Below, piece after piece: positions 13,566 to 61,214 of a DNA stretch of 64,000 bases. Location of the stretch: assembly GCA_043823745.1 (NCBI GenBank), contig JBDRAN010000003.1, positions 2,958 to 66,957 of the forward strand, given 5' to 3'. Position 1 is the stretch's first letter. Each line of letters starts with the position of its first letter. Under the pieces are notes generated by a model. That model was not told where the DNA came from. It saw only the letters and a list, made by a program, of their open reading frames with translations, and did not search any database. The position numbers were made by a program, and so were the translations under genes. This DNA comes from Candidatus Omnitrophota bacterium. GTDB taxonomy: Bacteria > Omnitrophota > Gorgyraeia > Duberdicusellales > 4484-171.

Positions 13566-13581
13566 ATTGAACGGGTAAGAT

Positions 13582-14227: not shown

Positions 14228-14241
14228 AAAAAATCACGCCC

Positions 14242-24182: not shown

Positions 24183-24213
24183 CGGTTTAACTAAGAGGAG
24201 GAGAGAGGTGAGT

Positions 24214-26277: not shown

Positions 26278-26286
26278 GAGAGGACA

Positions 26287-26886: not shown

Positions 26887-26901
26887 TTATGGGAGGTCGC
26901 A

Positions 26902-28488: not shown

Positions 28489-28517
28489 TTGACAAGAAAA
28501 TTTGCCTGGGATATAAT
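28489..28517 (+). promoter_or_regulatory. Consensus sigma-70 promoter TTGACA-N17-TATAAT
   Basis: ttgacaagaaaatttgcctgggatataat. It drives the riboswitch leader. Confidence 0.75.
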
Positions 28518-28559
28518 CCAGTTGCTCTTTAAAATTTAGAAGCAAACGTTTGCGGTGCT

Positions 28560-28720
28560 TGTAAACCTCGGCAGAGAACGCAGTTCTTTGACGGGTAAAG
28601 CTTAATAGGGAACTCCGTGAAAATCGGAGACACTCCCGGTGCTGTAAAGGAGGACGAACGGCGCAATGATGCCACTATCTCGTGTTACACGGATGGAAAG
28701 GCGCGCCTAGTAGAATGAAT
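28560..28720 (+). promoter_or_regulatory. Cobalamin (AdoCbl) riboswitch #1
   Basis: Conserved core GGGAAC..CGTGAAAATC..CCCGGTGCTGTAAAGG..GCCACT matches the B12 element consensus (B12 box GCCACT at 28671-28676). Confidence 0.8.
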
Positions 28721-28823
28721 CCTATAGTCAGAAGACCTGCCGCAAAAAAAGTAATCTATTTTTAGGTTTTACGCGGAAATAATAACCTAAATTTTTACTT
28801 TCGGGATAAGAAACCAGGGTGCA

Positions 28824-28854
28824 CCCCGACGCAAATGACGCGTCGGGGTTTTTT
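28824..28854 (+). terminator. Rho-independent terminator, probably the riboswitch expression platform
   Basis: ccccgacgc-aaatgac-gcgtcgggg + TTTTTT. Confidence 0.75.
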
Positions 28855-28855: not shown

Positions 28856-29130
28856 ATGAGACAGCAGCTTTTTCAGAGCGAAGCGATAGAAAAACTGCGT
28901 AGTCGAATTAACCCCGTCGAACGCGCCAAAATTATCTTGCGTACAACGTACGCGTGAAAATTTTGGCGTACGCGGTGAGACGGGGTGATGAGACAGCCCC
29001 TCTGGGCGTCCCTGGAGGACAGCCCCTCTGGGCGTCCCTGGAGGACAGCCCCTCTGGGCGTCCCTGGAGGACAGCCCCTCTGGGCGTCCCTGGAGGACAG
29101 CAGCGTTTTCAGAGCGACGCGATAGAAAAT
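28856..29130 (+). repeat. Compound repeat: 4.x tandem copies of a 26-nt unit (gacagcccctctgggcgtccctggag, 28992-29101) nested between approximately 35-nt direct repeats (gagacagcagcNttttcagagcgaMgcgatagaaaa at 28856-28894 and 29095-29130)
   Basis: Period 26 nt, so non-coding. The track ORF 28954..29166 is repeat-generated. Confidence 0.85.
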
Positions 29131-29552: not shown

Positions 29553-29669
29553 ATGGAGAAGAAACCGCGCAAGATAAAGAAAAACGTTATTGCCTGTCGT
29601 AAAAAGTGTAAAGCGACCGGCGCAGGCTTATCGCATTATGTACTCTTGGAGAAGGAGAATAAATCTTAA
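29553..29669 (+). CDS. Small ORF, 38 aa (MEKKPRKIKKNVIACRKKCKATGAGLSHYVLLEKENKS): candidate precursor/leader peptide
   Basis: Strong RBS AAAGGGGGGG sits 8 nt upstream. The stop overlaps the ATG of the downstream rSAM gene (TAATG). Not in the ORF track, which omits ORFs under 60 aa. Confidence 0.45.
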   Translation: MEKKPRKIKKNVIACRKKCKATGAGLSHYVLLEKENKS

Positions 29670-31069
29670 TGTTGCAAAAAATAATAGGTATGAAAACTCA
29701 AACCTATTTCAATACGGGCGAAGGGGATAGCATCCAACCCATAGACATCGGCCACAGAGATTATACTTGTTTAGTTTCCGCCGATACGGCATTCTGGGCG
29801 CTGGTTAGAAAAGATAGATTGGCCAGCGCCCAGGCCGGCTCGTCGCTCTTAAGCGAATATCGTAAAAAAGCGAAGACCTTCTTGGGCGGAATGAACACGT
29901 TGCGGTTTAAATTAAAACCTTCAGCCGTATATTTTAATCCTACCGACAGATGCAACCTCGATTGTTGTTATTGTTATATTCCCGCAGACTTACGTAAAAA
30001 TGGTACGCATATGTCCGCCCTAAAGCTTTCGAAAGCGCTCGGGATTCTTAAGAATTATTTTAAGCCCAGTCTTTCACGGGGCCAGAAACCTCAGATCATT
30101 TTTCATGGGGCTGAACCACTACTTAATAAACAAGCTGTTTTTACCGCAATAGACAGATATGAGAAAGATTTTCGTTTTGGCATTCAGACGAACGGAACAC
30201 TTTTGGACGGTAACGCGCTGGAATTCTTGACTTCACGAGGCATAAGCATAGGCCTTTCTCTTGATGGTCACATACATAGCGTAGCCGATCGATTGAGACG
30301 GAACTGGAATGGTGAAGGCGTTTCCCGAAAAGTCATTGAGGTGATGAGCCGGCTTAAAGGGTATCGTAATTATTCCGTTATCTGCACCGTAACACGAAAA
30401 AATATGTCCTCACAGGCCAAGATAGTCGAGTTTTTTCATCGCATGGAAGTACCAATGTGCATGCTCAATCCCGTTCGTTGCACGCTCCCCGGCGGCTATA
30501 AGCAAAAGCCATCAGACGAAAAAGCCGCGACGCATTATCTGAAAGCCTTGGATCACGCCTACAATCTCTACCAGAAGTCCAACCGTAAACTGGTGGTGGC
30601 AAACTTCGCGAATGTTCTGATAAGTATTCTCGCGCCCACAGCCAGGCGGCTTATGTGTGATATCTCCCCATGTGGGGCGGGAAGATGTTTCTTCGCAATT
30701 TCGAGCAAGGGTAACATGTTCCCCTGCAGCGAATTTATAGGAATAAAGAAGTTTAGAGGCGGCAATATTTTTAGGGATGATATCCGTGCAGTCTTAAAGA
30801 CGGCGCCGTTCAAATCTGTTACCGAAAGACGCATTGAAGATATTACTCCCTGTTCGCGCTGCGCTATCCGTCATTTTTGCGGTGCGCCATGTCCCGCTGA
30901 AGCTTGGACTATAAACGGCTCAATGGTTTCAAGAGGCGCGTTCTGCAGGTTCTACGAAGAACAGGTACGATACGCGTTTAGAGTAATCGCCGATAATAAA
31001 GAAGGCGCGTACTTATGGGATGAGTGGGATAAGGATACGCTTACGACATTCGATATTACAAGAAAATAA
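29669..31069 (+). CDS. Radical SAM enzyme with C-terminal SPASM/twitch domain and an approximately 95-aa N-terminal extension
   Basis: CNLDCCYC (CX3CX2C) at residues 97-104. C-terminal Cys-rich CDISPCGAGRCF...CSEF...CSRCAIRHFCGAPC. RBS AAGGAG. Confidence 0.8.
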   Translation: MLQKIIGMKTQTYFNTGEGDSIQPIDIGHRDYTCLVSADTAFWALVRKDRLASAQAGSSLLSEYRKKAKTFLGGMNTLRFKLKPSAVYFNPTDRCNLDCCYCYIPADLRKNGTHMSALKLSKALGILKNYFKPSLSRGQKPQIIFHGAEPLLNKQAVFTAIDRYEKDFRFGIQTNGTLLDGNALEFLTSRGISIGLSLDGHIHSVADRLRRNWNGEGVSRKVIEVMSRLKGYRNYSVICTVTRKNMSSQAKIVEFFHRMEVPMCMLNPVRCTLPGGYKQKPSDEKAATHYLKALDHAYNLYQKSNRKLVVANFANVLISILAPTARRLMCDISPCGAGRCFFAISSKGNMFPCSEFIGIKKFRGGNIFRDDIRAVLKTAPFKSVTERRIEDITPCSRCAIRHFCGAPCPAEAWTINGSMVSRGAFCRFYEEQVRYAFRVIADNKEGAYLWDEWDKDTLTTFDITRK

Positions 31070-31089
31070 CAGGGATTGAGATTATTTGT

Positions 31090-31731
31090 ATGACAAGATT
31101 AATTTTGATACGTCATGGCGTAACCGAATGGAATAGAGAGAAACGTTACTGCGGCCATAAAGATATAGGTTTAAATAACGAAGGTAAGTCTCAGGTTACG
31201 TTGTTATCTCACAGGCTTAATGCGGTCGGATTCGATAAAGTATATTGCAGCAATAGGAAACGTGCGATACAGACCGCGCGAATACTCTTTAAGCAGATAA
31301 AAATAATCCCGGATCGAGGTTTACGCGAAATCAATTTCGGTGTTCTTGAAGGATTAAAGCATGAAGAAATTATGGAAAAGTACGCAGATATATACAAGAA
31401 GTGGCTAAAGGATCCATTCAAAAACAGAATTCCTAAGGCAGAACCGATGAATGTTTTTAAAAAGAGAATCGAAAACGCCCTGTGGAATATCATCCGAGCT
31501 AATTCCGACAAGACGATTGCCGTTGTTTGCCATGGCGGAGTGATAGGCATGTTTGTGAACGAGATATTGAAGAATAGGAATTTCTGGCGCTACGTGCCAT
31601 CGCCGGCAAGCGTTACGGTAATAGAACATAAGGAAGGAAAGTCTAAATTAAAAAAGTTCAATGACACAACCCATCTTATGGCTTGCCCCGTTAGAAAGAC
31701 GGGGTTTTCTAACGGGGTAAATAATGAGTAA
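31090..31731 (+). CDS. cobC: Alpha-ribazole phosphatase (histidine phosphatase family)
   Basis: RHG catalytic motif (LIRHGVTEWN), 213 aa, in a cob context. Confidence 0.75.
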   Translation: MTRLILIRHGVTEWNREKRYCGHKDIGLNNEGKSQVTLLSHRLNAVGFDKVYCSNRKRAIQTARILFKQIKIIPDRGLREINFGVLEGLKHEEIMEKYADIYKKWLKDPFKNRIPKAEPMNVFKKRIENALWNIIRANSDKTIAVVCHGGVIGMFVNEILKNRNFWRYVPSPASVTVIEHKEGKSKLKKFNDTTHLMACPVRKTGFSNGVNNE

Positions 31732-32245
31732 AATGACTTTCATTTTAGGGGGCGCACGGAGCGGTAAGAGTCGATATGCCGCTGAAATAGCGAAAAAGCT
31801 TGGAAAGAAGACGATATTCATCGCTACAGCGGCTGCGCTGGATGATGAGATGAAAGAAAGGATACGCCTTCATAAAATTTCGAGGCCGAAGGGATGGGGC
31901 CTTATTGAGGAACCCATGGATTTAAGCGGTGTTATTGTCGGATTGAAGCCGACATACGATGTGGCAATAATCGACTGCATAGGATTGTGGGTCTGCAATC
32001 TTTTAATGGCCGACATGAAAGACGACGCGATAGAGAAAAGAATAAAGAAGCTGACAGGCAGCATTTTCAAAGCTAAAGCCGGTCTTGTCGTTATAGTATC
32101 AAATGAAGTGGGGGGAGGAATAGTTCCCGCGGATCCGCTATCGAGAAGATTCCGCGATCTGCTTGGGTTAGCGAATCAAATGATAGCGGCGAAAGCAGAA
32201 AGCGTTATTGTGATGCAGGCGGGAATACCGGTGAAAATAAAATAG
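31724..32245 (+). CDS. cobU: Bifunctional adenosylcobinamide kinase / adenosylcobinamide-phosphate guanylyltransferase
   Basis: P-loop GGARSGKS. About 170 aa, matching the CobU/CobP family. Confidence 0.85.
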   Translation: MSKMTFILGGARSGKSRYAAEIAKKLGKKTIFIATAAALDDEMKERIRLHKISRPKGWGLIEEPMDLSGVIVGLKPTYDVAIIDCIGLWVCNLLMADMKDDAIEKRIKKLTGSIFKAKAGLVVIVSNEVGGGIVPADPLSRRFRDLLGLANQMIAAKAESVIVMQAGIPVKIK

Positions 32246-32390
32246 ATAACACCCGGCCTTATCGCACCTTGGCATAAATGATTGCCAAGTACGCCCTTTC
32301 TGGGCAGGATAGGCCGGTAACGCAGAAAGCGGACACTCGCCCATCCAATTGGGCGAGGTGTGCGCACTTACTGTGCAAGGAGCTAAAATC

Positions 32391-33449
32391 ATGAAATTAT
32401 TGAACGAAACGCTTTCAAAAATTGAAAAAATAAACAATTCACTATCCAAAGAAACTCAAGGTAGGCTCGACAATCTGACCAAACCACAGGGAAGCCTCGG
32501 GAGGCTGGAGGATCTGGCCAAACAGATCGTGGAGATAACAGAAGCTAAAAATCCGAAACTAAAAAATAAGGTTATATTTATAATGGCCGGAGATCATGGT
32601 GTCGTTGAAAATAATGTGAGCGCTTTTCCCCAAGAAGTAACCTCTCAGATGGTATATAATTTTTTAAATGGCGGAGCGGGAATAAATGTGCTGGCAAAAC
32701 ACGTGGGCGCACGAGTCGTTGTCGTTGATATGGGGGTAGTATGCGAGCTTAAGAACAACCAGGCTCTTGTAATAAAAAAGGTAAATTATGGCACAAAAAA
32801 TATGGCAAAGGGCCCTGCGATGTCAAAAGACGAGGCTATCAAATCCATTGAAAATGGCATAGAAGCATTCAAGGGAGAACTGCCGAACGGAATAGATATA
32901 GTTGGGACAGGGGATATGGGTATCGGAAACACTACTCCTTCAAGCGCTGTTGTCTCTGCGATAACCGGACGGAACGTAGAAGAGGTGACGGGCAGGGGCA
33001 CCGGGATCGATGACAAAACCTTGGCCTGCAAAATTGCCGCCATCAAAGAAGCTTTGAACGTAAATAAGCCGGATCCAAAAGACGGAATAGATATCTTGTC
33101 TAAAGTGGGTGGATTCGAGATCGGTGGATTAATAGGAGTAATGCTGGCAGCCGCGGCGCATAGGATACCGGTGGTAATAGACGGATTTATTTCAGGGGCG
33201 GCTGCCTTGATAGCGTATACAATAGAGCCGAAAGCCAAAGATTACATGATAGCTGCCCATTGCTCGGTCGAGCAAGGCCATAAAGCCGCGCTCGCATTCT
33301 TAGGGCTTAAACCCGTCCTTGATTTAAACTTAAGGCTGGGAGAGGGAACCGGAGCGGCATTGGCTATAAACATAATAGAGGCCGGCACTAAAATATTAAA
33401 TGAGATGGCGACGTTTGAAAGCGCCGATGTTTCCAAAAAGGACGAATGA
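32391..33449 (+). CDS. cobT: Nicotinate-nucleotide--dimethylbenzimidazole phosphoribosyltransferase
   Basis: CobT motifs GDMGIGNTT and E...GEGTGA. RBS GGAG precedes ATG 32391. Confidence 0.85.
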   Translation: MKLLNETLSKIEKINNSLSKETQGRLDNLTKPQGSLGRLEDLAKQIVEITEAKNPKLKNKVIFIMAGDHGVVENNVSAFPQEVTSQMVYNFLNGGAGINVLAKHVGARVVVVDMGVVCELKNNQALVIKKVNYGTKNMAKGPAMSKDEAIKSIENGIEAFKGELPNGIDIVGTGDMGIGNTTPSSAVVSAITGRNVEEVTGRGTGIDDKTLACKIAAIKEALNVNKPDPKDGIDILSKVGGFEIGGLIGVMLAAAAHRIPVVIDGFISGAAALIAYTIEPKAKDYMIAAHCSVEQGHKAALAFLGLKPVLDLNLRLGEGTGAALAINIIEAGTKILNEMATFESADVSKKDE

Positions 33450-34189
33450 AAAGATTTCTAATCGCTTTACAGTTTTTAACCATCCTTCCTTTTAGTATTA
33501 AGGGAAAAATAGAAAAGGAAGATTTTGGCAGATCTCTTGTCTATTTTCCAATAGTCGGTCTTTTATTAGGTTTTTTTCTGGCGAGCATAGCTTATATTTC
33601 ATTATCTCTTCCGCCTATGGTTAGAAGCATCTTAATTCTGGTTGTATGGATGGTCATAACCGGCGGAATACATTTAGACGGGTTTGCGGATACCTGCGAC
33701 GGTTTTTACGGAATTCGCCCCAGGGAAGAGATTTTAAAAATAATGCGGGACAGCCGCATCGGAACTATGGGCGCTGCAGGCCTTGCGATGCTCCTACTCT
33801 TTAAATTCGCGATACTCTCGAGCATCCGGCCGGAAGATTTATGGAAGATTTTGGTAATAACGGTAGTATTCGCCCGATGGTCCCAGGTATTTGCCTGCTC
33901 TATGTCCGGATACGCGCGAGATGACGGCAAAGCCAAATATTTTATAGAATATGCGAAGAAGAGTCATATGTTCATAGGAGCTTTATTTATACTACTTCTC
34001 AATGGGTTTCTTATGGGTATAAAAGGCATGATCTTATTCGTTATCTTGTCAGCGGTGATATTTTTATTCATAAAATATGCGGAAAGAAAAATTGGCGGCA
34101 TGACAGGAGATACGATCGGCGCGACGAACGAAATTGCTGAGGCATCGGCGCTAATATTTAGCTTAATATTATTAAATTATAAAATATGA
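33446..34189 (+). CDS. cobS: Adenosylcobinamide-GDP ribazoletransferase (cobalamin synthase)
   Basis: Polytopic membrane protein with CobS motifs LTILP and DGFADT. Confidence 0.85.
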   Translation: MKRFLIALQFLTILPFSIKGKIEKEDFGRSLVYFPIVGLLLGFFLASIAYISLSLPPMVRSILILVVWMVITGGIHLDGFADTCDGFYGIRPREEILKIMRDSRIGTMGAAGLAMLLLFKFAILSSIRPEDLWKILVITVVFARWSQVFACSMSGYARDDGKAKYFIEYAKKSHMFIGALFILLLNGFLMGIKGMILFVILSAVIFLFIKYAERKIGGMTGDTIGATNEIAEASALIFSLILLNYKI

Positions 34190-35241
34190 TCGATAAAATT
34201 CATGGCGGAAATTGTTTAAAGCGAAACATCATTGATTTCAGCGTGAACACAAATCCATTGGGTTTACCGAAAGGATTATCCGGTATTATTTCAAAGAATA
34301 CCGATTGTGTCTTGCGTTATCCGGAACCTTCTTCAGAACGATTAAAGCGAAAATTGGCGGCATTGCATGCCGTAGGGCCGGAAAACATCGCCATAGGTAA
34401 CGGTTCCATAGAACTCATCTATCTTGTCCCCAGAGTTTTAAAAATAAAAAATGCGCTTATAATCACGCCAACATTCAGCGAATATGAATTCGCCGTCAAA
34501 TCTAACGGCTCGACGCCTGTATTTTTCAATGTTTGCGAAAAAGACGATTTTAATATTGAGTGCGGCAAGATAGCAAAACGCCTGCCGCGCCGCGGCGCCT
34601 TCTTCTTGTGCAACCCGAATAATCCGACAGGCACCATGCTGCATAGTAATGATGTCCTATTTTTGTCTCGCCTTTCCAGAAAACACAAAAGCCCTTTGAT
34701 ACTCGATGAGGCGTTCATTGAATTCACCGGAGAATCAAAAAGAACAACCATAGTGTCAGAGGCGATTAAAAACGAATTTTTAATTATTTTAAGATCGCTG
34801 ACTAAATTCTTCGCCATGCCGGGCTTAAGGCTGGGGTACGCCATAGGGCATAAAAGGATAATCGAGAAAATCGTTAAACTTCAATATCCATGGAATGTGA
34901 ATGGCCTGGCACAACGTGCGGGGGAAAAGGTCTTGGCTGATAAAGAGTATATTGATCAAACCCGACTGTTTGTCGCCAAAGAACGGCACTATCTGCTCGA
35001 AAGTTTAAATAATATAAAAGGAGTAAAGGCTTATCCATCATTAGCAAACTTCATTTTATGTAAGTTGCACAATGCATCAATCCAAAGCTCCAAAGAATTA
35101 ACCCGGCGATTGTTGTGCAACAACATCTATGTCCGCGACTGTAGCAATTTTAGGGGATTGAGTAATAAGTTTTTCAGGGTAGCGGTAAGAAAAAGAGATG
35201 ATAACGATCTGCTGGTAAATAGTATGAAAAAGGTACTTTGA
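34186..35241 (+). CDS. cobD: L-threonine-O-3-phosphate decarboxylase (class I/II aminotransferase fold)
   Basis: N-terminal IHGGN motif and a PLP-lysine region, in a cob context. Confidence 0.75.
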   Translation: MIDKIHGGNCLKRNIIDFSVNTNPLGLPKGLSGIISKNTDCVLRYPEPSSERLKRKLAALHAVGPENIAIGNGSIELIYLVPRVLKIKNALIITPTFSEYEFAVKSNGSTPVFFNVCEKDDFNIECGKIAKRLPRRGAFFLCNPNNPTGTMLHSNDVLFLSRLSRKHKSPLILDEAFIEFTGESKRTTIVSEAIKNEFLIILRSLTKFFAMPGLRLGYAIGHKRIIEKIVKLQYPWNVNGLAQRAGEKVLADKEYIDQTRLFVAKERHYLLESLNNIKGVKAYPSLANFILCKLHNASIQSSKELTRRLLCNNIYVRDCSNFRGLSNKFFRVAVRKRDDNDLLVNSMKKVL

Positions 35242-36767
35242 TGAACCACGCGAAAACACTGCATATCTGCGGGACAGGTTCAGGCGTAGGTAAGAGCGTT
35301 ATTGTGAGCGCTTTGTGCAGGATCCTTTTACAGGATGGCTACAGAGTTTGTCCGTTCAAAGCGCAGAATATGGCCCTCAATTCTTTTGTGACCAAGGAAG
35401 GCGGTGAGATAGGCAGAGCTCAAGCCTTTCAGGCCGAAGCTTGCCGTATTGAGCCACATGTTGACATGAATCCTATATTGATGAAACCTACCGCTGATAA
35501 GCATGCACAAGTGATAGTTCATGGGAAACCCGTAGGAAATATGAGCGCGCTTCGCTATGTGAGTCATAAGAAACGGTTATCTAAAGAGGTGTTTAACTCA
35601 TTCGACAGGCTTAGTAAAAAATATGAATTGATAGTAATGGAGGGCGCCGGAAGTCCTGCCGAGATAAACTTAAAGTCTCACGATATTGTTAATCTCAAAA
35701 TGGCGCGCTACGCCGCCGCGCCTGTGATTTTAGTTGGTGATATTGATAAAGGCGGTGTTTTCGCGTGGCTTGTCGGAACACTTGAGCTACTGGAAAGAGA
35801 AGAACGAAAACAGATAAAAGGGTTTATAATCAATAAATTTAGGGGAGACGCAAAGCTTTTAAAACCCGGAATAGATTTTTTGGAAAAAAGAACGGGCATA
35901 AAAGTCCTTGGAATCATTCCGTACTTTCATCCATCAGGTCGAAATAGCATAAAGATTTCAGAGGAGGATTCAGTACCTCTGGATAATTTTGAAAGTGTAG
36001 ATAGGCCCGCTCGGTGCAAACTTAATATTGATGTAATATATCTTCCGCATATATCTAATTTTACCGATTTTGACGCATTGGAGAGGGAGCCGGATGTAAA
36101 TCTACGGTATATAAAAAGCCCTGAGTCATTAAACAGGGCGGATATTATTATAATTCCTGGTACGAAGAATACGACAAGTGACCTGCGGTATCTAAAGGAA
36201 GCGGGATTCGCAGAAAAGATAAGTAGTGTTATGGGGAATGATAAAACCGCCGTCTTAATAGGAATATGCGGTGGATTTCAGATACTGGGCACAAGGATAC
36301 GTGATCAACACCGAATCGAATCCCGTCAAAAAGAAACAAACGGACTGGGAATATTGGAGATGGAAACGGTCTTCGGCAAAGATAAAGTTCTTTCGCAGGT
36401 TAAAGCAAAAGAAGCATCTTCAGGGTTAGAGGTATCAGGCTATGAGATACACCACGGTAAATCACGAAATATCAGAACTTATATGCCGGCTTTCAACATT
36501 ATAGAACGCAAAGGAAAAGTTGCCCGCGACGCTGATGGTATAGTTGCAATGACTGGCAGGATATATGGAACCTACATACATGGAATATTTGACGCGGATA
36601 CTTTCAGAAGAAATTTTTTAAACAGAATAAGATTAAAAAAAGGATGGAATGTTTTGTCTAATAAGGCCAGCTTTAATCCCGACCGTGAGCTGGATAAGTT
36701 AGCCAACCTTGTTCGGAAGAATATGGACATGAAATATCTCTATAGCGTATTAAAAAACGGAGTCTAG
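35238..36767 (+). CDS. cobQ: Cobyric acid synthase
   Basis: CobQ/CbiP N-terminal ATPase domain (GTGSGVGKS) plus a C-terminal glutamine amidotransferase domain (GICGGFQ). Confidence 0.9.
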   Translation: MMNHAKTLHICGTGSGVGKSVIVSALCRILLQDGYRVCPFKAQNMALNSFVTKEGGEIGRAQAFQAEACRIEPHVDMNPILMKPTADKHAQVIVHGKPVGNMSALRYVSHKKRLSKEVFNSFDRLSKKYELIVMEGAGSPAEINLKSHDIVNLKMARYAAAPVILVGDIDKGGVFAWLVGTLELLEREERKQIKGFIINKFRGDAKLLKPGIDFLEKRTGIKVLGIIPYFHPSGRNSIKISEEDSVPLDNFESVDRPARCKLNIDVIYLPHISNFTDFDALEREPDVNLRYIKSPESLNRADIIIIPGTKNTTSDLRYLKEAGFAEKISSVMGNDKTAVLIGICGGFQILGTRIRDQHRIESRQKETNGLGILEMETVFGKDKVLSQVKAKEASSGLEVSGYEIHHGKSRNIRTYMPAFNIIERKGKVARDADGIVAMTGRIYGTYIHGIFDADTFRRNFLNRIRLKKGWNVLSNKASFNPDRELDKLANLVRKNMDMKYLYSVLKNGV

Positions 36768-36768
36768 G

Positions 36769-37719
36769 ATGCGGATCGTTTATATTCTCGTGTCATATCT
36801 ATTAGACCTCGTATTCGGAGATCCGCCCTCATTTCCGCATCCGGTAAGGGGAATCGGCTGGGTTATCAAGAAATTAGAAGGGCCGTTCAGATATATTGTT
36901 AAAAATGAACGCATAGCCGGCGTTTTTTTCGCCTGTACGATAATAATCTTGATATGGCTCATAACTTTTACGGTAACGCAGACGGCATATTTTTTTAATA
37001 ATTATCTTGGCGCTATTATTTCGATAATCATTATTTATACTTCATTATCGGTAAAGGACCTAGGCATAGAAAGTCTGGCAGTCTTTAGTGCGTTAAAAGA
37101 CGGAAATCTGAATAAAGCGAGGACAGCTCTTTCTAAAATAGTGGGAAGGGATACGTCAAATCTGGACGAATGGGAAATAATAAGGGCTACAGTAGAGACT
37201 GTCGCCGAAAATATCGTTGATGGCATAATCTCGCCTCTATTGTATGCCTTTTTGGGCGGCGCTTCCCTCGCTATGGCATATAAAGCTATTAATACGTTGG
37301 ACTCTATGGTCGGTTATAAAAATAAGCGGTATATAAATTTTGGATGGGCGTCTGCGAAGATCGATGATATTGCTAATTTTATTCCGGCTAGGCTAGGAGT
37401 AATATTTTTGTGTCTGGCAAGTTGGATAAGCGGCCATAATCCCATCAAGGCATGGAATATTGCAATACGTGATGGAGCGAAGAATCCCAGCCCTAATAGC
37501 GGTCTTCCTGAAGCAGCTATTGCCGGCGCCCTTGGAGTTCGATTGGGGGGATTGAATTATTATAATTCGACAGCGGTTCAGAAATCATATATAGGAGATG
37601 ATATTAATTCTTTAGATAAATCACATATAAAAGAAGCCGTCAAGATTGTTTACATCACATCTGGTCTATTTGTAATTACAGGAGCGGTTTTATTCTGGTT
37701 GATATGTAAACCCCGTTAG
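36769..37719 (+). CDS. cbiB: Adenosylcobinamide-phosphate synthase
   Basis: CbiB/CobD membrane-protein motifs (HPVRGIG...). Confidence 0.85.
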   Translation: MRIVYILVSYLLDLVFGDPPSFPHPVRGIGWVIKKLEGPFRYIVKNERIAGVFFACTIIILIWLITFTVTQTAYFFNNYLGAIISIIIIYTSLSVKDLGIESLAVFSALKDGNLNKARTALSKIVGRDTSNLDEWEIIRATVETVAENIVDGIISPLLYAFLGGASLAMAYKAINTLDSMVGYKNKRYINFGWASAKIDDIANFIPARLGVIFLCLASWISGHNPIKAWNIAIRDGAKNPSPNSGLPEAAIAGALGVRLGGLNYYNSTAVQKSYIGDDINSLDKSHIKEAVKIVYITSGLFVITGAVLFWLICKPR

Positions 37720-37756
37720 AGAACTTCATTCTCTAACGGGGTAAAGGGAGACTCTC

Positions 37757-38404
37757 ATGAAAGTAATTTCTTTGTGGAGCGGCGGCAAAGATAGTTGTTT
37801 TGCCTGTTATAAGGCAAAATTGCAGGGGTATCAAATAACCTCGGTCATTAATTTTACGAGCTCTGATGGAATCAATTCCGTATCACATGGTTTATCAGCC
37901 GATATTATACAAAGACAGGCAGACCTAATTGATATCCCTCTCTTACAAAAAGCTATGCCTCAAAAAGGCTACAGGAATGCATTTAAAGTATTATTTGAAG
38001 AACTTAAAGCAAAAGAAGGTGTAGAGGGAATTGTTTTCGGGGATATTTATTTACAGGAGCACAGGGATTGGATAGATAAAGTATGTGATGAATTAAAGGT
38101 AGAGGCGATTTTGCCGATATGGACAAAAGACACTGAGAGATTAGTTAAAGAAATTATCGATTCAGGATTTAAGTCAATTATAGTTTCGGCGAATAAAGAT
38201 ATTCTTGGAGAACAATGGTTAGGCCGTGAAATTAATAGCAGGTTTCTAAAAGACCTAAAGGCTATAGGAAATATAGATCTCTGCGGAGAAAAAGGCGAAT
38301 TCCATACATTTGTCTATGACGGCCCACTATTTAAGGAAAAGGTCAAATTTAATAAAGGCAATAAGACGTTGCGGGATAATCGATGGTTTTTGGAGGTTCT
38401 TTAA
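37757..38404 (+). CDS. PP-loop N-type ATP pyrophosphatase, Dph6/MJ0570 family
   Basis: SGGKDS PP-loop at residues 8-13 and the family motif GEFHTFV. Confidence 0.65.
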   Translation: MKVISLWSGGKDSCFACYKAKLQGYQITSVINFTSSDGINSVSHGLSADIIQRQADLIDIPLLQKAMPQKGYRNAFKVLFEELKAKEGVEGIVFGDIYLQEHRDWIDKVCDELKVEAILPIWTKDTERLVKEIIDSGFKSIIVSANKDILGEQWLGREINSRFLKDLKAIGNIDLCGEKGEFHTFVYDGPLFKEKVKFNKGNKTLRDNRWFLEVL

Positions 38405-39267
38405 TGAGAAAATCTGGTCTTCTTGTGCCGATCTTTTTTGCCGCATTCACGTTCCAGACCATATTCGTCGATGGTGCGTACGCTTCAGAAAACCATCCAA
38501 AAAAAATAATCTCTTTGGCACCATCCATAACCGAGGGGTTATATTTGCTGGGAGCGGAGAATATCCTTGTCGGCAATACGACTTACTGTGTGACTCCGCC
38601 TGCGGCGCGATACAAGGAAAAGGTCGGATCTATAACCAAGGTAGATTTAGAAAAGATCGTCGGATTAAAACCCGATTTGGTGTTGGCTACATCTCTTACA
38701 AATCCTAAAACGATTCAAAAGCTTAGAAGCTTAGGCATAGAAGTAAAATTATTTCCAGCGCCAAAAAATTTCACGTCTCTGTGTGATGAGTTTTTGGAAT
38801 TGGGCAAGGCGGTAGGCAGAGAGCCGGAGGCAAAGGAGATTGTCAAAGTGGCAGAGGGAAAGGTCGCTGAGATAAAGTCCAGGACTGCTACGCTTATGAA
38901 GCCGAAAGTTTTTATCGAAATTGGAACGAAACCTCTTTTTACCGCGAACAAGGACTATATCATCAATGATTTCGTGAAGCTGACCGGTGGAAAAAACATT
39001 GCCGAAGACTCGAAGATCGGCGTTTACAGCAAAGAAGAAGTTTTAAGAAATAATGTCGATGTAATACTCATCGTGACGATGGGTTTTGTGGGTGAGACGG
39101 AAAAAGAAGCGTGGCAGAAGTTTAAAATGTTGAATGCCGTAAAACACGATAGGATCTATATTATCGATTCGCAAAAGATATGCGGACCCACACCCGTGAC
39201 TTTTGCCAAAACCCTGGAAGAGATAAGTTTCCTCCTTCATCCGGAGCTATTGAAGAAGAAAAGATGA
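38404..39267 (+). CDS. btuF: Periplasmic corrinoid-binding protein of ABC transporter (BtuF/TroA-like)
   Basis: Signal peptide and a cluster-A SBP fold, in a btuCD context. Confidence 0.75.
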   Translation: MRKSGLLVPIFFAAFTFQTIFVDGAYASENHPKKIISLAPSITEGLYLLGAENILVGNTTYCVTPPAARYKEKVGSITKVDLEKIVGLKPDLVLATSLTNPKTIQKLRSLGIEVKLFPAPKNFTSLCDEFLELGKAVGREPEAKEIVKVAEGKVAEIKSRTATLMKPKVFIEIGTKPLFTANKDYIINDFVKLTGGKNIAEDSKIGVYSKEEVLRNNVDVILIVTMGFVGETEKEAWQKFKMLNAVKHDRIYIIDSQKICGPTPVTFAKTLEEISFLLHPELLKKKR

Positions 39268-40274
39268 ATAAGAGAACAATACGCTGGACAACACAGATAC
39301 TAATATTGGGAGGAGCGCTTTTTCTTATAGCGGCGCTGTCATTATGTCTGGGTTCTGCCGCTTTATCGGTTCAGACAGTCATCCGTTCTATTTTTAGTGG
39401 TTACAATACTACAGAATCTAATATTCTTTTTGAAATCCGCCTGCCGCGTATCATTTTGGGGTTTGCCATTGGCGGCGCGTTAAGCCTGGCTGGTGTTATT
39501 CTGCAAGGGCTTTTCCGAAATCCATTGGTAGAACCATATACAATGGGTATTTCCGGGGGAGCGGCTTTGGGAGTTAGCTTGGCCATTATCTTAAAATTAT
39601 ATCAGTCGATGGGTCTAGCGACATTACCGTTTGCCGGTTTTTTGGGAGCGGCTCTCGTTATTATGCTGATATACGCTATAAACATCAGAAAAAAGACGTT
39701 AAAGATACAGGGCCTGCTTCTGACTGGTGTTATGATAAGTTTCATATCATCGTCTTTTATAATGCTTATTATGGCTATTTCGCGTACTGAGGATCTTCAC
39801 GGCATTGTCTTTTGGATAATGGGTTCCCTGGAAGAACCAAGCTGGTTTCTTATAAAATTAATGCTCTTTACGTCTTTAGCGGGATTAGCCGTGTCGTATA
39901 TCTTCTGGAAGGACCTAAACGCGTTACGTTTGGGAGAAGAGGAAGCCGTGCATCTGGGAATCAATACGGAAAGAGCAAAAAGAGCGCTTTTTGTGCTGGC
40001 ATCGCTCCTTACCGGATGTGCTGTTTCTGTTGGCGGAATTATCGGTTTTGTCGGTTTGATTATTCCGCATCTTATGCGTATGTTTATAGGTTCTGATCAT
40101 AGGGCCCTTCTGGTGGGCTCATTTTTAGGCGGAGCGGGTTTTCTCATCTTCTGCGATACTTTGGCTAGGATAATTGTCACGCCTTCCGAGTTGCCCGTAG
40201 GTGTAATTACCGGCATATTAGGAGGAAGTTTCTTTATTTACGCTTTAACTAAGAGGGGAAAATCGATTGCTTGA
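39264..40274 (+). CDS. btuC: ABC permease, FecCD/BtuC family
   Basis: Nine to ten TM helices and FecCD-family motifs. Confidence 0.85.
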   Translation: MNKRTIRWTTQILILGGALFLIAALSLCLGSAALSVQTVIRSIFSGYNTTESNILFEIRLPRIILGFAIGGALSLAGVILQGLFRNPLVEPYTMGISGGAALGVSLAIILKLYQSMGLATLPFAGFLGAALVIMLIYAINIRKKTLKIQGLLLTGVMISFISSSFIMLIMAISRTEDLHGIVFWIMGSLEEPSWFLIKLMLFTSLAGLAVSYIFWKDLNALRLGEEEAVHLGINTERAKRALFVLASLLTGCAVSVGGIIGFVGLIIPHLMRMFIGSDHRALLVGSFLGGAGFLIFCDTLARIIVTPSELPVGVITGILGGSFFIYALTKRGKSIA

Positions 40275-41070
40275 AATAAAGGATTTGACGTGCGGTTACG
40301 ATAAGAGATTTCATCTTAGAGGGATAAATCTCGTGATTGAAGAAGGCGGTTTCTTCGGAATAATAGGGCCGAATGGATCCGGTAAAACAACGCTTTTGCG
40401 GGCTATAACGCGTGTCCTTGAGCCGGAAAGCGGAGAAGTGTTTCTTAGGGGAAAAAACATAAGGCAGATAGATTTTAGGGAGCTGGCGAGAACGATAGCG
40501 GTTGTTTCTCAGAACGTCTCTACTGATGAGCTCAACGTAAGGGAGTTCGTTCTTCTTTCGAGAATACCTCATTATAAAGGCCTTCAGTTTCTAGAGACAA
40601 AACACGATGAAGAGATCGCAGACAGGGCGATGGCCCTAACAGACACGCTTAAATTTAAAGATAGGTTGATGTCACAGATAAGCGGAGGCGAAAGGCAGCT
40701 TGTCCTTATCGCGCGCGCTTTGGCGCAAGAGCCGAAATTCCTTCTTCTGGATGAACCCACATCGCATCTTGACATAACGCATCAGGTTCGCATTCTCGAT
40801 CTCTTAAAAAAATTAAATAAAGAATTATCCCTTACCGTGATAATAGTTTTGCATGATTTGAATCTTGCCAGTGAATATTGTGACAGGATAGCGCTTCTAT
40901 CTGGTGGTGCCGTTTATAAAGAAGGTCTGCCGCAAGATGTCTTGGATTACAAGACTATCGAAAATGTTTATAAGACCGTAGTCGTTGTGGAGAAGAATCC
41001 GGTTTCCTCAAAGCCTTATGTCCTTCTCGTTTCTGAAGAAGAGAGAGAAAAACGAAGAAAAAAACAATGA
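40267..41070 (+). CDS. btuD: ABC ATPase, BtuD/FecE family
   Basis: Walker A GPNGSGKTT, ABC signature LSGGERQ and Walker B LLLDEP. TTG start. Confidence 0.85.
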   Translation: MLEIKDLTCGYDKRFHLRGINLVIEEGGFFGIIGPNGSGKTTLLRAITRVLEPESGEVFLRGKNIRQIDFRELARTIAVVSQNVSTDELNVREFVLLSRIPHYKGLQFLETKHDEEIADRAMALTDTLKFKDRLMSQISGGERQLVLIARALAQEPKFLLLDEPTSHLDITHQVRILDLLKKLNKELSLTVIIVLHDLNLASEYCDRIALLSGGAVYKEGLPQDVLDYKTIENVYKTVVVVEKNPVSSKPYVLLVSEEEREKRRKKQ

Positions 41071-41594
41071 GGCAGGGATTAATCCAGATTTATACGGGCG
41101 ATGGGAAAGGAAAGACTACTGCAGCGGTCGGCCTTGCCGTGCGGGCACGAGGACACAATTTTAAGGTTGGGTATATTTTCTTTTTTAAGGATCCTAAAAA
41201 GTTTGGGTACGCTGAAATCAGGCTTTTAAAGAAGCTGGGAGTAAAGGTCTTTGGTTTTTCTCATAAGCATCCGCATTTTTACAAGAATCTCGGCTCAAAC
41301 AGCGTACGCCGCGAATGCCTAAAGGGAATGAACTTCATCAAAAAGATATGCCACGCGGGAAGCTACGATCTTCTTATCCTTGACGAGATACTTATTGCTC
41401 TGCGCGACGGATTCCTGAGCGAAAATGAAATACTTGAGATCATGACGTTAAAGCCTCCCGACATGGAGTTGGTTATGACCGGCAGAGGCGCTACAGGCAA
41501 CATCATTAAGAAAGCGGATTTGGTGAGCGTCATTGAGAAAAAAAAGCATTATCTTGATAAAGGAGTAACAAAGAGGAAAGGTATTGAGTTTTAA
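41067..41594 (+). CDS. cobO: Cob(I)yrinic acid a,c-diamide adenosyltransferase
   Basis: IQIYTGDGKGKTTAAVG signature of CobA/CobO/BtuR. Confidence 0.85.
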   Translation: MRQGLIQIYTGDGKGKTTAAVGLAVRARGHNFKVGYIFFFKDPKKFGYAEIRLLKKLGVKVFGFSHKHPHFYKNLGSNSVRRECLKGMNFIKKICHAGSYDLLILDEILIALRDGFLSENEILEIMTLKPPDMELVMTGRGATGNIIKKADLVSVIEKKKHYLDKGVTKRKGIEF

Positions 41595-41689
41595 TAATGA
41601 AACAAACCGATAAAAGGAGGAGAAGGGAAGGATTTTTCTGAGGTATTGATTGCAGCGCATGGGTGTAATACACCGTATGAAAAAATTAT

Positions 41690-41815
41690 CCAGAATCTGT
41701 CCGGATAGACAAAGGAATTGGAGGTGCGATCCCTTTGGCTGCCCCGCAACGGTAATCTTCGGTTAATTCCCGAAGGAGCCCGGTCGATTGTCTATAGCGG
41801 AAGTATTCTCGAGGG
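41690..41815 (+). promoter_or_regulatory. Cobalamin riboswitch #2 (upstream of btuB)
   Basis: AAAGGAA..GGAGGTGCGATCC..GGCTGCCCCGCAACGGTAA matches the B12-element core. Confidence 0.6.
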
Positions 41816-41824
41816 AGAAGAATT

Positions 41825-43831
41825 ATGAAAAAAAGAATATTTATTTTAGTTGGAATGCTAATAGTGGCCACAACCACCGGCGTCTGCGCCGAAGAGAACA
41901 GATTTATTTATAACAAAGCCATTGAATTGAAGCCGATAACGGTGACTGTGTCAAGAACAGCGAGAACGATATCAGAGTCGCCGGCAAGCGTGAGCATTGT
42001 TACTAACCGCGATATAGCGCAGACTAATGCGAAGAGCGTGGCTGACTTGCTGAAAAGTATCGAAGGAATATATATGTATGATCCTTCCGGAGTCGGAGCT
42101 ACCGGGGCAGTGGTCAATATGCGCGGTTTTTATGGCGGCATGTCGAGCCATCAACTCGTGTTAGTAGACGGAATACCGCAAAATAAAGGCAAAGACAAGC
42201 TGATTGATTGGGATTTGCTTTCTATGGATAACATAGAGAGTATCGAGATTGTACGCGGGCCTGCCTCCGCTTTGTACGGAGATAATGCCATGTCCGGCGT
42301 AATAAATATTATTACCAAGAAGCCGAAGGATAAGCCTGAGTCAAAATTTCTCGCTTCTTATGGAAGTTTTAATACCCAGGAGTACGAGACGTCAACTTTG
42401 GGGACGTACAAGCAACTCGGGTATTTTATGGGAGCAAGTTATAAAACCAGCGATGGGTTTCGCAGACATGGTGATTATGACAAGACGCATGTTGGCGGGA
42501 AGTTAGACTACACGATTAATGATGCTCAGGCTTTAAAACTGTCGTTAGATTATTCCCAAAAAGAAAGAGGTGCTCTTTCGTGGGCATTGACTGAAGCTCA
42601 GATTGCGCAGGACCGTCGTCAAGCGCGCCCGGGTACCAAAAATGATAAAAGCGAAGAAACGAAAGGTGACGTAAGCATTGTGCACGCCTGGGATGTAAGT
42701 GACCAGGTAAACACAGAAGCGACATTTTATTATAAATACGACGATGCAAATTCGTTTTACACAAGCGGTTCCGCTGAAAGCACAAAGAGAGAGCAGCTTG
42801 ATGATGAAGATGTCTATGGCCTCTTACTGAAAGGCGGCTTAAAGCAAGAGATTCTAGGCTTACGGCATGAATTTACCGGAGGGGTTGATCTTGAAAGAGA
42901 TAATTTTGATTACGAGGAATATAATGCGCCGTATCAACAAAGAGGATCGCTGCGCAGTGATTACGAGGTAAGAAGAGATAAAATTGGTCCTTTTCTACAA
43001 GATGAAATTAAGCTTATCGATCCTTTGCGTCTTATTGCCGGGGTAAGGTATGATCGGGTTAATTTTGATTTTGACGATAAGAGAACTCTCGTTAACTCAA
43101 AGAAAGAAAAGATGTCTAAAGTAACTCCACGATGCGGCATGGTATATATGTATCAAAGAGACTCAAGCCTCTATGTAAACTATGCTCAGGCTTTCAGAAC
43201 CCCGACAATAGGGCAGATGTTTACGTACGCCAGCTCAGCTAATCCCGATTTAAAACCAGAAGATGCGACAAACTATGAAATCGGATTGCATCACCGCATT
43301 AGCGAGCTCTTGAGGACAAACGTTAGCTTTTACTGGATGGAGCTGGATAATGAAATCTGGTATGATTATGCTACCAATAAATATCAGAATTATGGCAAGA
43401 CATCACATAAAGGTATAGAAACGAGTTTAGATTTTAAAATAGTTAAATGGTTATCGGGTTTTGCGAATTACACCTATTCGCGGGCAAAAAACAAAGCCGG
43501 AAGTTATAGCGGGAAATATCTGACCAATATCCCCATGCACAAGGCAAGTTCAGGATTACATTGCACCAGCAAGTTCGGGTTGAGTTGGGATTTAGCCGTT
43601 ACCTATGTTGGCAGCTCCTATATCGATTCGACAAACAACAACAAACTTTCAAGTTTTACTACGGCAGATACTAAAGTAAGCTATGAATATAAAGCAATGA
43701 ATGTTTTCTTAGCAATCGATAATCTGTTTGCTAAAAAATTCAATTCGTATGGCTTTGTAAGCGGTAATACGAAATATTTTAATCCGGCTCCGGAAAGAAC
43801 ATTCACGTTAGGGGCCGAAGTTAAATTTTAG
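41825..43831 (+). CDS. btuB: TonB-dependent outer-membrane receptor, probable corrinoid receptor
   Basis: Signal peptide, plug and barrel, terminal ...AEVKF. Sits behind a cobalamin riboswitch. Confidence 0.8.
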   Translation: MKKRIFILVGMLIVATTTGVCAEENRFIYNKAIELKPITVTVSRTARTISESPASVSIVTNRDIAQTNAKSVADLLKSIEGIYMYDPSGVGATGAVVNMRGFYGGMSSHQLVLVDGIPQNKGKDKLIDWDLLSMDNIESIEIVRGPASALYGDNAMSGVINIITKKPKDKPESKFLASYGSFNTQEYETSTLGTYKQLGYFMGASYKTSDGFRRHGDYDKTHVGGKLDYTINDAQALKLSLDYSQKERGALSWALTEAQIAQDRRQARPGTKNDKSEETKGDVSIVHAWDVSDQVNTEATFYYKYDDANSFYTSGSAESTKREQLDDEDVYGLLLKGGLKQEILGLRHEFTGGVDLERDNFDYEEYNAPYQQRGSLRSDYEVRRDKIGPFLQDEIKLIDPLRLIAGVRYDRVNFDFDDKRTLVNSKKEKMSKVTPRCGMVYMYQRDSSLYVNYAQAFRTPTIGQMFTYASSANPDLKPEDATNYEIGLHHRISELLRTNVSFYWMELDNEIWYDYATNKYQNYGKTSHKGIETSLDFKIVKWLSGFANYTYSRAKNKAGSYSGKYLTNIPMHKASSGLHCTSKFGLSWDLAVTYVGSSYIDSTNNNKLSSFTTADTKVSYEYKAMNVFLAIDNLFAKKFNSYGFVSGNTKYFNPAPERTFTLGAEVKF

Positions 43832-44336: not shown

Positions 44337-45083
44337 ATGAAATTTCTACTTTTTGGAATACTGCAGGGGCTTACTGAATTTTTGCCTGTTAGTAGTTCAG
44401 GCCACCTGTATTTACTTAAAAGAATCATTGGGGAGCAAGCAAACCTTTTTGCTTTTTTCATCCTGCTGCATGCGGCAACGCTTGCGGCAACAATTATTTT
44501 CTTCTTTAAACAAATCATCTCACTCTGCGCCAAAAAGCGCCTCTTGCTTCAGATTGCAGTTATTACTGCCGTAACCGGAACCATGGGCCTGGCCATCAAG
44601 CACTTCTTTGAGCCCTGGTTTGACAAAAAGATTCTCTTATCCGGCTGCATCCTGACAAACGCGCTCATCCTTTTTTCGGCGCGACCAACCAACGATTCAC
44701 CTAAAAAAACAGCTGAAACTATGACCGTAAAAGATTCGCTTCTTATCGGCCTCATGCAAGGCATATCCGCATTTCCGGGCATATCGCGATCAGGAAGCAC
44801 CATAACCGCTTTCTTGCGCCGGGGCTTCGCGCCGCAGGAAGCGTTTACCTTATCATTTGTCGCTTCGATACCGGTAATTCTGGCCGCGTTTATTCTTGAA
44901 ATAAAAGAACTTCCCAATCTTACCGTACACACCGGCACAAAAGGAATTATCGCCGGTTGCCTTGCCGCAGCCGCCACCGGCCTGCTTGCGCTGATCGTAC
45001 TCAAGCGCCTCGTGGTTAATGCGCGCTTTAAAAACTTTTCATATTATTGTTTTACACTTTTTATCATAAGTTTATTCCTATGA
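44337..45083 (+). CDS. uppP: Undecaprenyl-diphosphatase
   Basis: UppP/BacA signature LTEFLPVSSSGH and eight TM helices. Confidence 0.9.
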   Translation: MKFLLFGILQGLTEFLPVSSSGHLYLLKRIIGEQANLFAFFILLHAATLAATIIFFFKQIISLCAKKRLLLQIAVITAVTGTMGLAIKHFFEPWFDKKILLSGCILTNALILFSARPTNDSPKKTAETMTVKDSLLIGLMQGISAFPGISRSGSTITAFLRRGFAPQEAFTLSFVASIPVILAAFILEIKELPNLTVHTGTKGIIAGCLAAAATGLLALIVLKRLVVNARFKNFSYYCFTLFIISLFL

Positions 45084-61006: not shown

Positions 61007-61214
61007 TAAACCCGATTTGCAACCCAGCCGCCATAATAGCCATCTCGGTGCCTAACTTGCCCATCATGGGCACATCCACTTAAAGAGCAACGGCTTCCGG
61101 AGCTACTTTAGGCCTGTGGCTTTGCGCCCCCCGATTTCTCGAGGTTTACCCTTATCGGCAATTTAGATATACTATATTTTTTGGAAAGTTTCAAGGAAGA
61201 ATGAAAATAAGAAT

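Follow-up and report, generated by a model that had tools for sequence, protein, structure and literature searches.

Why should a relative of diphthine–ammonia ligase (Dph6) be encoded in a bacterial operon for the salvage and uptake of vitamin B12? The question is raised by a 64,000-nucleotide (nt) stretch of a Candidatus Omnitrophota genome (contig JBDRAN010000003.1; the whole stretch is hereafter the window), in which an ATG-to-TAA open reading frame (ORF) of 215 amino acids (aa) at 37757..38404 on the + strand, the target of this study, lies within an array of cob and btu genes. Salvage and remodelling of cobamides decide which microbes use which forms of B12 in communities, and three enzymes or mechanisms (CbiZ, CbiR and the Vibrio CobS) are known to initiate remodelling. 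A preliminary description of the locus held that the Dph6-like family had been assigned no role in cobamide metabolism. That claim of novelty fails because de Crécy-Lagard et al. (Biol Direct 2012, PMC3541065) had already named a subgroup, DUF71-B12, on the same evidence of clustering and motif. DUF71-B12 is widespread, and its genome context has tied it to B12 since 2012; its reaction is only predicted. To a specialist the association is unsurprising: the window gene is a further member, from Omnitrophota, and brings no new principle. What is new here is a set of leads to the reaction, namely the adjacency of DUF71-B12 genes to CbiP, to an N-terminal half of CobQ (CobQ-N) and to AsnB-like proteins, and their fusion to PduO-type adenosyltransferases. 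These neighbour and fusion patterns narrow the experiments that are needed, and the CobQ-N/DUF71 pairing is of moderate interest.

A predicted PP-loop ATP pyrophosphatase between cbiB and btuF

The target protein is a full-length match to PF01902 (Diphthami_syn_2; formerly DUF71/ATP_bind_4), scoring 174.5 bits against a gathering score of 23.2 over profile positions 1-214 of 219 (E = 2.9e-51), and this is its sole Pfam match. WSGGKDS occupies residues 7-13; its SGGKDS portion (residues 8-13; 37778..37795, +), read from the sequence, is the PP-loop, the ATP pyrophosphate-binding motif. CGEKGEFHTFV spans residues 176-186 and contains GEKGEFHT (residues 177-184; 38285..38308, +), the DUF71-B12 signature, with His183 in place of Glu188 of Dph6. 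Across an alignment of 79 diverse homologues, G10, K11 and H183 were invariant, and S8, G9 and D12 were at least 90% conserved. The ATP-site residues common to both subfamilies (SGGKD, H44, T184 and the GE-x-GE core) are all kept in the target.

An AlphaFold2 model built with the 79 homologues as input had a mean predicted local distance difference test score of 97.1. Foldseek (E = 8.6e-18) aligned it with the two-domain fold of PH1257 (2D13; template modelling score 0.88) and PF0828 (3RK1; 0.86); the matches beyond these were only distant HUP-domain proteins, with no solved DUF71-B12 structure among them. The placement in the Dph6-like family that the preliminary description had based on the SGGKDS and GEFHTFV motifs was thus borne out by Pfam, NCBIfam and Foldseek. 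Family membership predicts that the protein presumably splits ATP into AMP and pyrophosphate (PPi).

The gene begins 37 nt 3' of cbiB and its stop codon overlaps the btuF start as TAATG, so that the tight packing noted earlier also stood when ORFs and Pfam/NCBIfam assignments were examined. The cob/btu genes around it form a co-directional array of 13 kb. As judged from sequence and predicted structure, the target is a real Dph6-like, ATP-using PP-loop enzyme in a B12 salvage and uptake operon.

Assignment to the DUF71-B12 subgroup

The DUF71/COG2102 family has been split into Dph6, found in archaea and eukaryotes, and DUF71-B12, found in bacteria and as second archaeal copies (PMC3541065). 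The latter subgroup was defined by clustering, with 75 of 102 members beside B12 (btu) transporter genes and 18 of 102 beside cbiB; it carries the signature ENGEF/YH (GE-x-GE-[FY]-H), as against EGGE/DxE188 in Dph6, differs at all of the residues predicted to bind elongation factor 2 (EF-2), and has its own SEED subsystem (PMC3541065).

The target shares these properties. Its GEKGEFH aligns with GEGGEFETFV of PH1257 and PF0828 such that His183 faces Glu; the second signature position, Lys in the target, is variable within the group. Among the 270 nearest proteins (120 closest clusters plus the 150 best representatives at 50% identity), 239 of 241 motif matches had His at this site. TIGR03679 (Dph6_archaeal) was the top NCBIfam match by score, but at 144.7 bits it fell below the equivalog cut-off of 197.3. 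The His-motif group conserves thirteen residues that neither Dph6 structure has, for example Y72, where Dph6 has Glu, and H102, where it has Gln, this set being taken from our alignment and not from the numbered list of EF-2 contacts in PMC3541065. A neighbour-joining (NJ) tree was drawn from 84 sequences without bootstrap, with PF0828 and PH1257 as its root. In it the target grouped with the Omnitrophota sequences of L004 and L017 inside the His-motif set, apart from both Dph6 structures; a phylogeny against Dph6 homologues had been among the proposed checks. (L-numbers label sampled genome loci.) The clustering that defines the subgroup is also found, with cbiB before the gene and btuF-btuC-btuD after it. 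We therefore place the target, by these sequence features, in DUF71-B12 and not among the diphthine–ammonia ligases.

The motif, cut-off and Pfam evidence together reject a true Dph6. NCBI gives close homologues the name "diphthine--ammonia ligase", and members of the subgroup are routinely mis-named in this way in bacterial genomes. Because neither EF-2 diphthamide nor the dph genes occur in bacteria (PMC3541065), this label is very probably wrong for the bacterial homologues. Other assignments fared no better. Orthology to a tRNA/queuosine-type PP-loop enzyme, which the preliminary description had named as a refutation of its reading, was rejected, PF01902 being the only Pfam match. Among the window ORFs scanned there was no match to PF01955 (CbiZ), and the target itself is not of the CbiZ family; it also lacks matches to PF01656, PF13500 and PF07685, and so does not have the architecture of CobQ/CbiP.

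The nearest database proteins to the target come from Candidatus Omnitrophota metagenome-assembled genomes, and a database search with it returned 4265 representative clusters at E <= 0.001 from many phyla.

Recurrence beside cobamide genes

We surveyed gene neighbourhoods by a pattern scan in which each GTDB species was represented by a single genome. The scan gave 598 confirmed matches, of which the best 80 loci were kept; neighbours were detected by phmmer with the window's own proteins as probes. The 80 loci span Omnitrophota, Chloroflexota/Dehalococcoidia, Nitrospirota, Bacteroidota, Planctomycetota, Desulfobacterota, Spirochaetota, Bathyarchaeia, Methanosarcinales and others. A cob-specific gene lay within 5 kb on the same strand in 42 of the 80, and a cob or btu/TonB-receptor gene in 50, so that the recurrence with cob/btu genes for which the preliminary description had proposed a check was indeed found. 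CobS (24 loci), CobT (20), BtuD (19), BtuF (19), CobU (18), the receptor (17) and CobC (15) were the common neighbours, CbiB (8) and CbiP (7) the rarer ones. The density of cob/btu genes per flank was 0.73 in the bin at 0-2 kb and had dropped to 0.07 in that at 8-10 kb, and in the nearest bin all 52 of 52 such genes were co-oriented with DUF71.

Clustering of the unlabelled neighbours in this survey yielded an archaeal-type CobT, a CobY-like nucleotidyltransferase and an AsnB-like protein, and no recurrent family resembling CbiZ. Lineage-specific synteny around DUF71 in Chitinophagaceae was judged uninformative and set aside.

Two further arrangements were observed. Some cob/btu loci of Omnitrophota and Reichenbachiella hold two His-motif DUF71 paralogues (L029:7663-8388 and 10251-10943; L077:9947-10651 and 13507-14229); their second copies form one group in the NJ tree, an indication of sub-functionalisation. 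In five loci, at about 10-13 kb (L034, L043, L052, L067 and L073; four from Bathyarchaeia/Bathyarchaeota, and L067, labelled Sulfotelmatobacter), DUF71 is followed by the archaeal-type CobT, CobS and the CobY-like nucleotidyltransferase, and in three of them an endonuclease-IV-like AP_endonuc_2 gene is close by on the opposite strand.

Amidating enzymes as neighbours and fusion partners

Three kinds of neighbour bear on the reaction. First, a full-length CbiP directly adjoins DUF71 in L001, L004, L059 and L074, and is one gene away in the window. Second, a glutaminase-less N-terminal half of CobQ makes up the whole of each protein in a large family of about 265-298 aa. The half found beside DUF71, of about 280 aa, corresponds to positions 1-237 of the cobyric acid synthase model, which has 480 positions, and carries PF01656 and PF13500 without GATase_3. 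All 120 of its best database matches have this N-half-only architecture, under the source name "cobyric acid synthase". We saw the family in the salvage-type loci L084, L085 and L087-L092 (for example L087:7001-7840 and L089:4342-5175), and in six of them (L084, L085, L087, L089, L090 and L091) it stands immediately 5' of a His-motif DUF71, with gaps of -8 to +5 nt. When sampling began from CobQ-N, DUF71 followed in 4 of 6 places, and in L089 and L090 the two genes form isolated modules. Third, a glutaminase-less Asn_synthase homologue (PF00733) is the immediate neighbour of DUF71 in three B12-uptake operons from Desulfobacterota and on one contig from Nitrososphaerales (L021:7219-8196, L046:2892-3875, L065:7997-8929 and L042:727-1685); in the Dehalococcoidales locus L027 such a homologue (13166-14095, -) lies about 7 kb from DUF71 on the opposite strand. 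The L046 representative has a Cys-rich C-terminal tail. No CbiA-like match was found near DUF71 in the 80 loci, the window CbiP being the sole probe.

Fusions point the same way: in P0237 and L091 the partner of DUF71 is a PduO-type corrinoid adenosyltransferase, and in P0178 it is the Cys-rich domain PF04071. Fusions to GNAT, VanY, rhodanese and DUF4116-repeat domains were single cases with no link to B12. Taken together, the CbiP, CobQ-N and AsnB-like neighbours and the PduO fusions favour an amidoligase over the CbiZ-like amidohydrolase that has been published.

Two of the CobQ-N loci have other contents of note. In a Spirochaetota locus with cobT-S-U-C, a TonB receptor and btuFCD, an AP_endonuc_2 gene (a TIM barrel of the CbiR family; L088:7846-8616) follows the CobQ N-half. 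In L085 (4420-7852), nitrogenase-like genes stand directly 3' of btuF, CobQ-N and a DUF71::zf-like fusion; they encode a NifH::NifD-like fusion of 723 aa (best matches NifH and CfbC, under their cut-offs) and a NifK/BchB-like protein, and could be a tetrapyrrole-reducing system tied to corrinoid uptake.

A candidate amidoligase for imported corrinoids

The reaction that we tentatively favour, at somewhat short of an even chance, would depend on ammonia and form AMP: imported corrinoids, probably adenosylated ones, would be amidated at one or more of their carboxylate side chains. The family would have kept its ancestral chemistry, in which ATP would bind at the SGGKDS loop, a carboxylate would be adenylated with release of PPi, and ammonia or a different amine would accept the acyl group. 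The substrate would have changed, from diphthine on EF-2 to a side chain of the corrinoid, and His183, together with the subgroup-specific Y72, D96, H102, W105 and C176, may re-shape the acceptor site. Salvaged corrinoids that are incompletely amidated would in this way have their amides completed or repaired, after which CbiP, CbiB and the nucleotide-loop enzymes would finish the cofactor. This is essentially the first suggestion of the preliminary description, re-amidation of salvaged incomplete corrinoids.

As chemistry, re-amidation suits a PP-loop enzyme better than the CbiZ-like proposal does, and the neighbours and fusions lend it some support. A reviewer of the 2012 paper had objected that PP-loop amidoligases are hardly ever re-used as amidohydrolases, and its authors conceded that no sequence feature spoke for a shift to hydrolysis (PMC3541065). 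If an amidoligase it is, B12 salvage would gain a new enzymatic step, and corrin amidation would have a third type of enzyme, unrelated to the other two. A wider scheme, which we regard as speculative and rather unlikely in full, would pair the amidoligase with CbiP, or with CobQ-N and in some lineages an AsnB-like synthetase, in an unrecognised re-amidation branch that makes deamidated or incompletely amidated imports usable without CbiA; the CobQ-N/DUF71 module would be its minimal form.

Several observations weigh against this interpretation. B12 context was missing from 30 of the 80 loci, and in the NJ tree it is lacking from clades within Methanosarcinales/Methanomicrobia, Chitinophagaceae and Betaproteobacteria. 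An Rfam scan of 17 loci without cob genes found a cobalamin riboswitch in only one (L058), so the B12 link cannot be extended to loci of the Chitinophagaceae, Betaproteobacteria and Methanosarcinales type. In most of the B12-linked loci the genes close to DUF71 are cobU/T/S/C and btu alone, and neither CbiP nor CbiB is within reach. The phyletic pattern described in 2012 suggests a role like that of CbiZ, DUF71-B12 being anticorrelated with bacterial CbiZ and genomes with CbiB carrying either CbiZ or DUF71-B12 (PMC3541065). The change of Glu to His at the catalytic site could mean a different chemistry. In the literature up to 2026 we found no biochemical or genetic characterisation of any DUF71-B12 protein, and a 2016 review lists the subgroup as of unknown function in B12 salvage.

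Alternative roles

The published proposal, put forward with caution, is a CbiZ-like role, in which DUF71-B12 would start cobamide remodelling: it would either cleave adenosyl-pseudo-B12 or adenosylcobinamide, with adenosylcobyric acid as the product, or open a different route of pseudo-B12 salvage, and CbiB would use what results (PMC3541065). We consider it improbable. The anticorrelation with bacterial CbiZ just mentioned was strict in the 2012 genome set and was accompanied by co-occurrence with CbiB, and the exchange of Glu188 for His hints at an altered chemistry (PMC3541065). In the Dehalococcoidia operons L012 and L027, which contain DUF71, btuD abuts cbiB with nothing in between. The CbiR-family AP_endonuc_2 gene of L088 occupies the slot after CobQ-N that is held by DUF71 in L087 and L089-L091, a hint that DUF71 is perhaps interchangeable with a family of known remodelling enzymes. 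On the other side, the reviewer's objection stands that no obvious path leads from ATP-consuming adenylation by a PP-loop to hydrolysis of an amide; the ATP-site residues are all kept; cbiB is missing within 10 kb at many DUF71 loci, although it could be elsewhere in the genome; and in archaea CbiZ and DUF71-B12 often occur together (PMC3541065). Were the enzyme an analogue of CbiZ after all, it would be a rare recruitment of a PP-loop ATPase for amide cleavage.

A soluble, ATP-using partner or bypass of CbiB seems to us distinctly unlikely. Such an enzyme would adenylate the f-propionate of (adenosyl)cobyric acid and help to attach the aminopropanol(-phosphate) linker or another amine. Adenylation of a carboxylate followed by attack of an amine suits the chemistry of the family, and CbiB is an integral membrane protein without a recognisable nucleotide-binding motif, which also speaks for a partner. 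DUF71 directly follows cbiB in the window, L086, L017 and L087, in keeping with the 18 of 102 members beside cbiB in 2012 (PMC3541065). Yet cbiB lay within 5 kb in only 8 of our 80 loci, and the isolated CobQ-N/DUF71 pairs have neither cbiB nor cobD nearby. Most organisms that encode CbiB lack DUF71, moreover, and Salmonella makes adenosylcobinamide phosphate without it.

Very unlikely, in our estimate, is a role in the lower-ligand or nucleotide-loop branch, where the enzyme would activate or amidate a carboxylated base or nucleotide precursor for CobT or CobS and leave the corrin ring alone. Nucleotide-loop genes are the commonest neighbours of DUF71, with direct adjacency to cobS, cobC, cobU and cobT being common, but these four are simply the commonest salvage genes, and the fusions and tight pairs involve corrin-side enzymes (the PduO adenosyltransferase, CobQ and CbiP). 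To our knowledge this branch has no carboxylate-bearing intermediate save the nicotinate mononucleotide (NaMN) donor. A genuine Dph6, as the database names and the top NCBIfam match would have it, or an enzyme unrelated to B12 that stands in the operon by accident, is effectively excluded by the score below the equivalog cut-off, the change of Glu188 to His, the differing EF-2-contact positions, the lack of diphthamide and dph genes in bacteria (PMC3541065) and the recurrence with cob/btu genes across phyla.

Operon architecture and surroundings

The order of genes in the array is cbpA, cbpB, cobC, cobU, cobT, cobS, cobD, cbiP, cbiB, DUF71, btuF, btuC, btuD, cobA/btuR and a TonB-dependent receptor; all genes from 29553 to 43831 are on the + strand and overlap or are closely spaced. 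Upstream of the array, a consensus scan found a site like a sigma-70-type promoter (TTGACA-17-TATAAT, 12 of 12 positions; 28489..28517, +), whose function is inferred. It is followed by a cobalamin riboswitch aptamer (RF00174, 92.2 bits, E = 1.4e-21; 28536..28758, +) and by a terminator-like hairpin with a T-run (28823..28849, +; a 10-bp stem with 8 GC pairs, then TTTTTT), probably the expression platform of the riboswitch. No comparably strong terminator-like site was found on the + strand before the end of cobA, the others having at most 6 pairs. With these control elements upstream and no strong terminator-like site within, the array is likely to be co-transcribed and repressed by B12. The leader of about 700 nt between the riboswitch terminator and cbpA contains a perfect tandem repeat with a 26-nt unit in 4.2 copies (GACAGCCCCTCTGGGCGTCCCTGGAG; 28992-29101).

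The first two genes are cbpA (29553..29669, +), encoding a "cobopeptide" precursor peptide (TIGR04164, 41.1 bits against a cut-off of 35), and cbpB (29669..31069, +), encoding a peptide-modifying radical S-adenosylmethionine/SPASM enzyme (TIGR04163, 667.6 bits against 375). CbpB also occurs within cob/btu loci of L004, L017 and L029. In L086, a relative with 91% identity, the order from cobC to the receptor is kept in another genomic setting and without cbpAB.

The nucleotide-loop genes come next: a cobC-like alpha-ribazole phosphatase of the histidine phosphatase family (31090..31731, +; TIGR03162, 146.9 bits, slightly under the cut-off of 162.9); cobU, adenosylcobinamide kinase/guanylyltransferase (31724..32245, +; NF004469, 180.9 bits against 161); cobT, NaMN:dimethylbenzimidazole phosphoribosyltransferase (32349..33449, +; TIGR03160, 458.7 against 319.3 bits), whose real start is perhaps slightly downstream; and cobS, cobalamin-5'-phosphate synthase (33446..34189, +; TIGR00317, 157.4 bits against 110). 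They are followed by cobD, threonine-phosphate decarboxylase (34186..35241, +; TIGR01140, 302.7 bits against 290.55); cbiP/cobQ, a full-length cobyric acid synthase with synthetase and GATase_3 domains (35238..36767, +; NF001989, 633.8 bits; PF07685, E = 1.7e-55); and cbiB, adenosylcobinamide-phosphate synthase (36769..37719, +; PF03186, E = 1e-104; TIGR00380, 257.6 against 165.9 bits).

A perfect 14-bp hairpin without a T-run lies over the cbiB stop codon (37710..37742, +; folding free energy about -25 kcal/mol, z = -2.8), just 5' of the ribosome-binding site of DUF71, an AGGGAG sequence resembling a Shine-Dalgarno site within the 37-nt gap. The hairpin could be an element of mRNA processing or stability, or of translational coupling.

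Downstream of the target, the corrinoid uptake genes begin with a btuF-like periplasmic corrinoid-binding protein (38404..39267, +; PF01497 (Peripla_BP_2), E = 8.9e-33; top NCBIfam match BtuF, under its cut-off). Its likely start is the ATG at 38404, with GGAGG at 38392-38396; an alternative in-frame ATG is at 38383. The ORF of the btuC-like permease (39264..40274, +; PF01032, E = 5.3e-92) opens at 39180, but its likely start is 39264, and the resulting length of 336 aa agrees with that of the L086 relative. A btuD-like ATP-binding cassette ATPase (40267..41070, +; PF00005, E = 7.9e-33) and the ATP:corrinoid adenosyltransferase cobA/btuR (41067..41594, +; PF02572, E = 3.1e-50) follow. The last ORF encodes a TonB-dependent outer-membrane receptor, BtuB-like by position (41825..43831, +); the syntenic L086 gene has Plug and TonB_dep_Rec domains.

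Other features of the window lie outside this array. Just 5' of the cob locus, at 23547-27901, are a second TonB-dependent receptor and ExbB/ExbD/TonB-like genes, assigned by sequence without a profile scan, and before this receptor is a His-rich membrane protein of 211 aa with no Pfam or NCBIfam match. A cluster at 2351-12811 resembles complex I and group-4 NiFe-hydrogenases, with NADHdh, a 49-kDa/NiFeSe large subunit and two Mrp-type antiporter subunits, and is followed by a HycI-like maturation protease (14242-15345). Towards the other end are a PilZ-STAS protein (45047-45799), several two-component genes at 50-60 kb, and a cyclic di-GMP-I riboswitch (61015-61160, -; 62.3 bits) 5' of a - strand ORF at 59.9-61 kb.

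Comparison with known systems

The target resembles previously described DUF71-B12 proteins, such as PF0295 of P. furiosus, in its signature, its PP-loop and ATP-site residues, its clustering with btuFCD and cbiB, and the distribution of the subgroup in bacteria and as second archaeal copies. It differs from the 2012 set in coming from Candidatus Omnitrophota, a phylum missing from the 2012 table (PMC3541065), and in having Lys for Asn at the second motif position; the subgroup is itself a bioinformatic prediction. With Dph6 (EC 6.3.1.14; yeast YLR143W; PF0828, 3RJZ/3RK0/3RK1; PH1257, 2D13) it shares the fold, about 30% identity, SGGKDS, the GE-x-GE core and presumably the adenylate-forming step; it departs from Dph6 in having His183 for Glu188, in Y72, H102 and others at EF-2-contact positions, in its bacterial host and in its cob/btu operon.

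CbiZ, the amidohydrolase of adenosylcobinamide and pseudo-B12 (PF01955), occupies a similar niche beside corrinoid transporters and cbiB in salvage loci. It is unrelated in sequence and fold, however, and is an ATP-independent hydrolase, whereas DUF71 has an intact ATP pyrophosphatase site. The reaction type that we propose, ATP-dependent amidation of corrin carboxylates, is that of CobQ/CbiP and CobB/CbiA, which are frequent direct neighbours of DUF71-B12; those enzymes, in contrast, have an unrelated fold and combine a dethiobiotin synthetase-like, acyl-phosphate-forming synthetase with a triad glutaminase, and DUF71 is an AMP-forming PP-loop protein without a glutaminase. Parallels in chemistry are offered by other PP-loop amidoligases, namely NAD synthetase (NadE), GuaA, the C-terminal domain of AsnB, and QueC, in which the PP-loop motif likewise serves adenylation of an oxygen followed by attack of a nitrogen. 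These belong to other Pfam families, and the C-terminal domain with GE-x-GE-[FY]-H is unique to DUF71.

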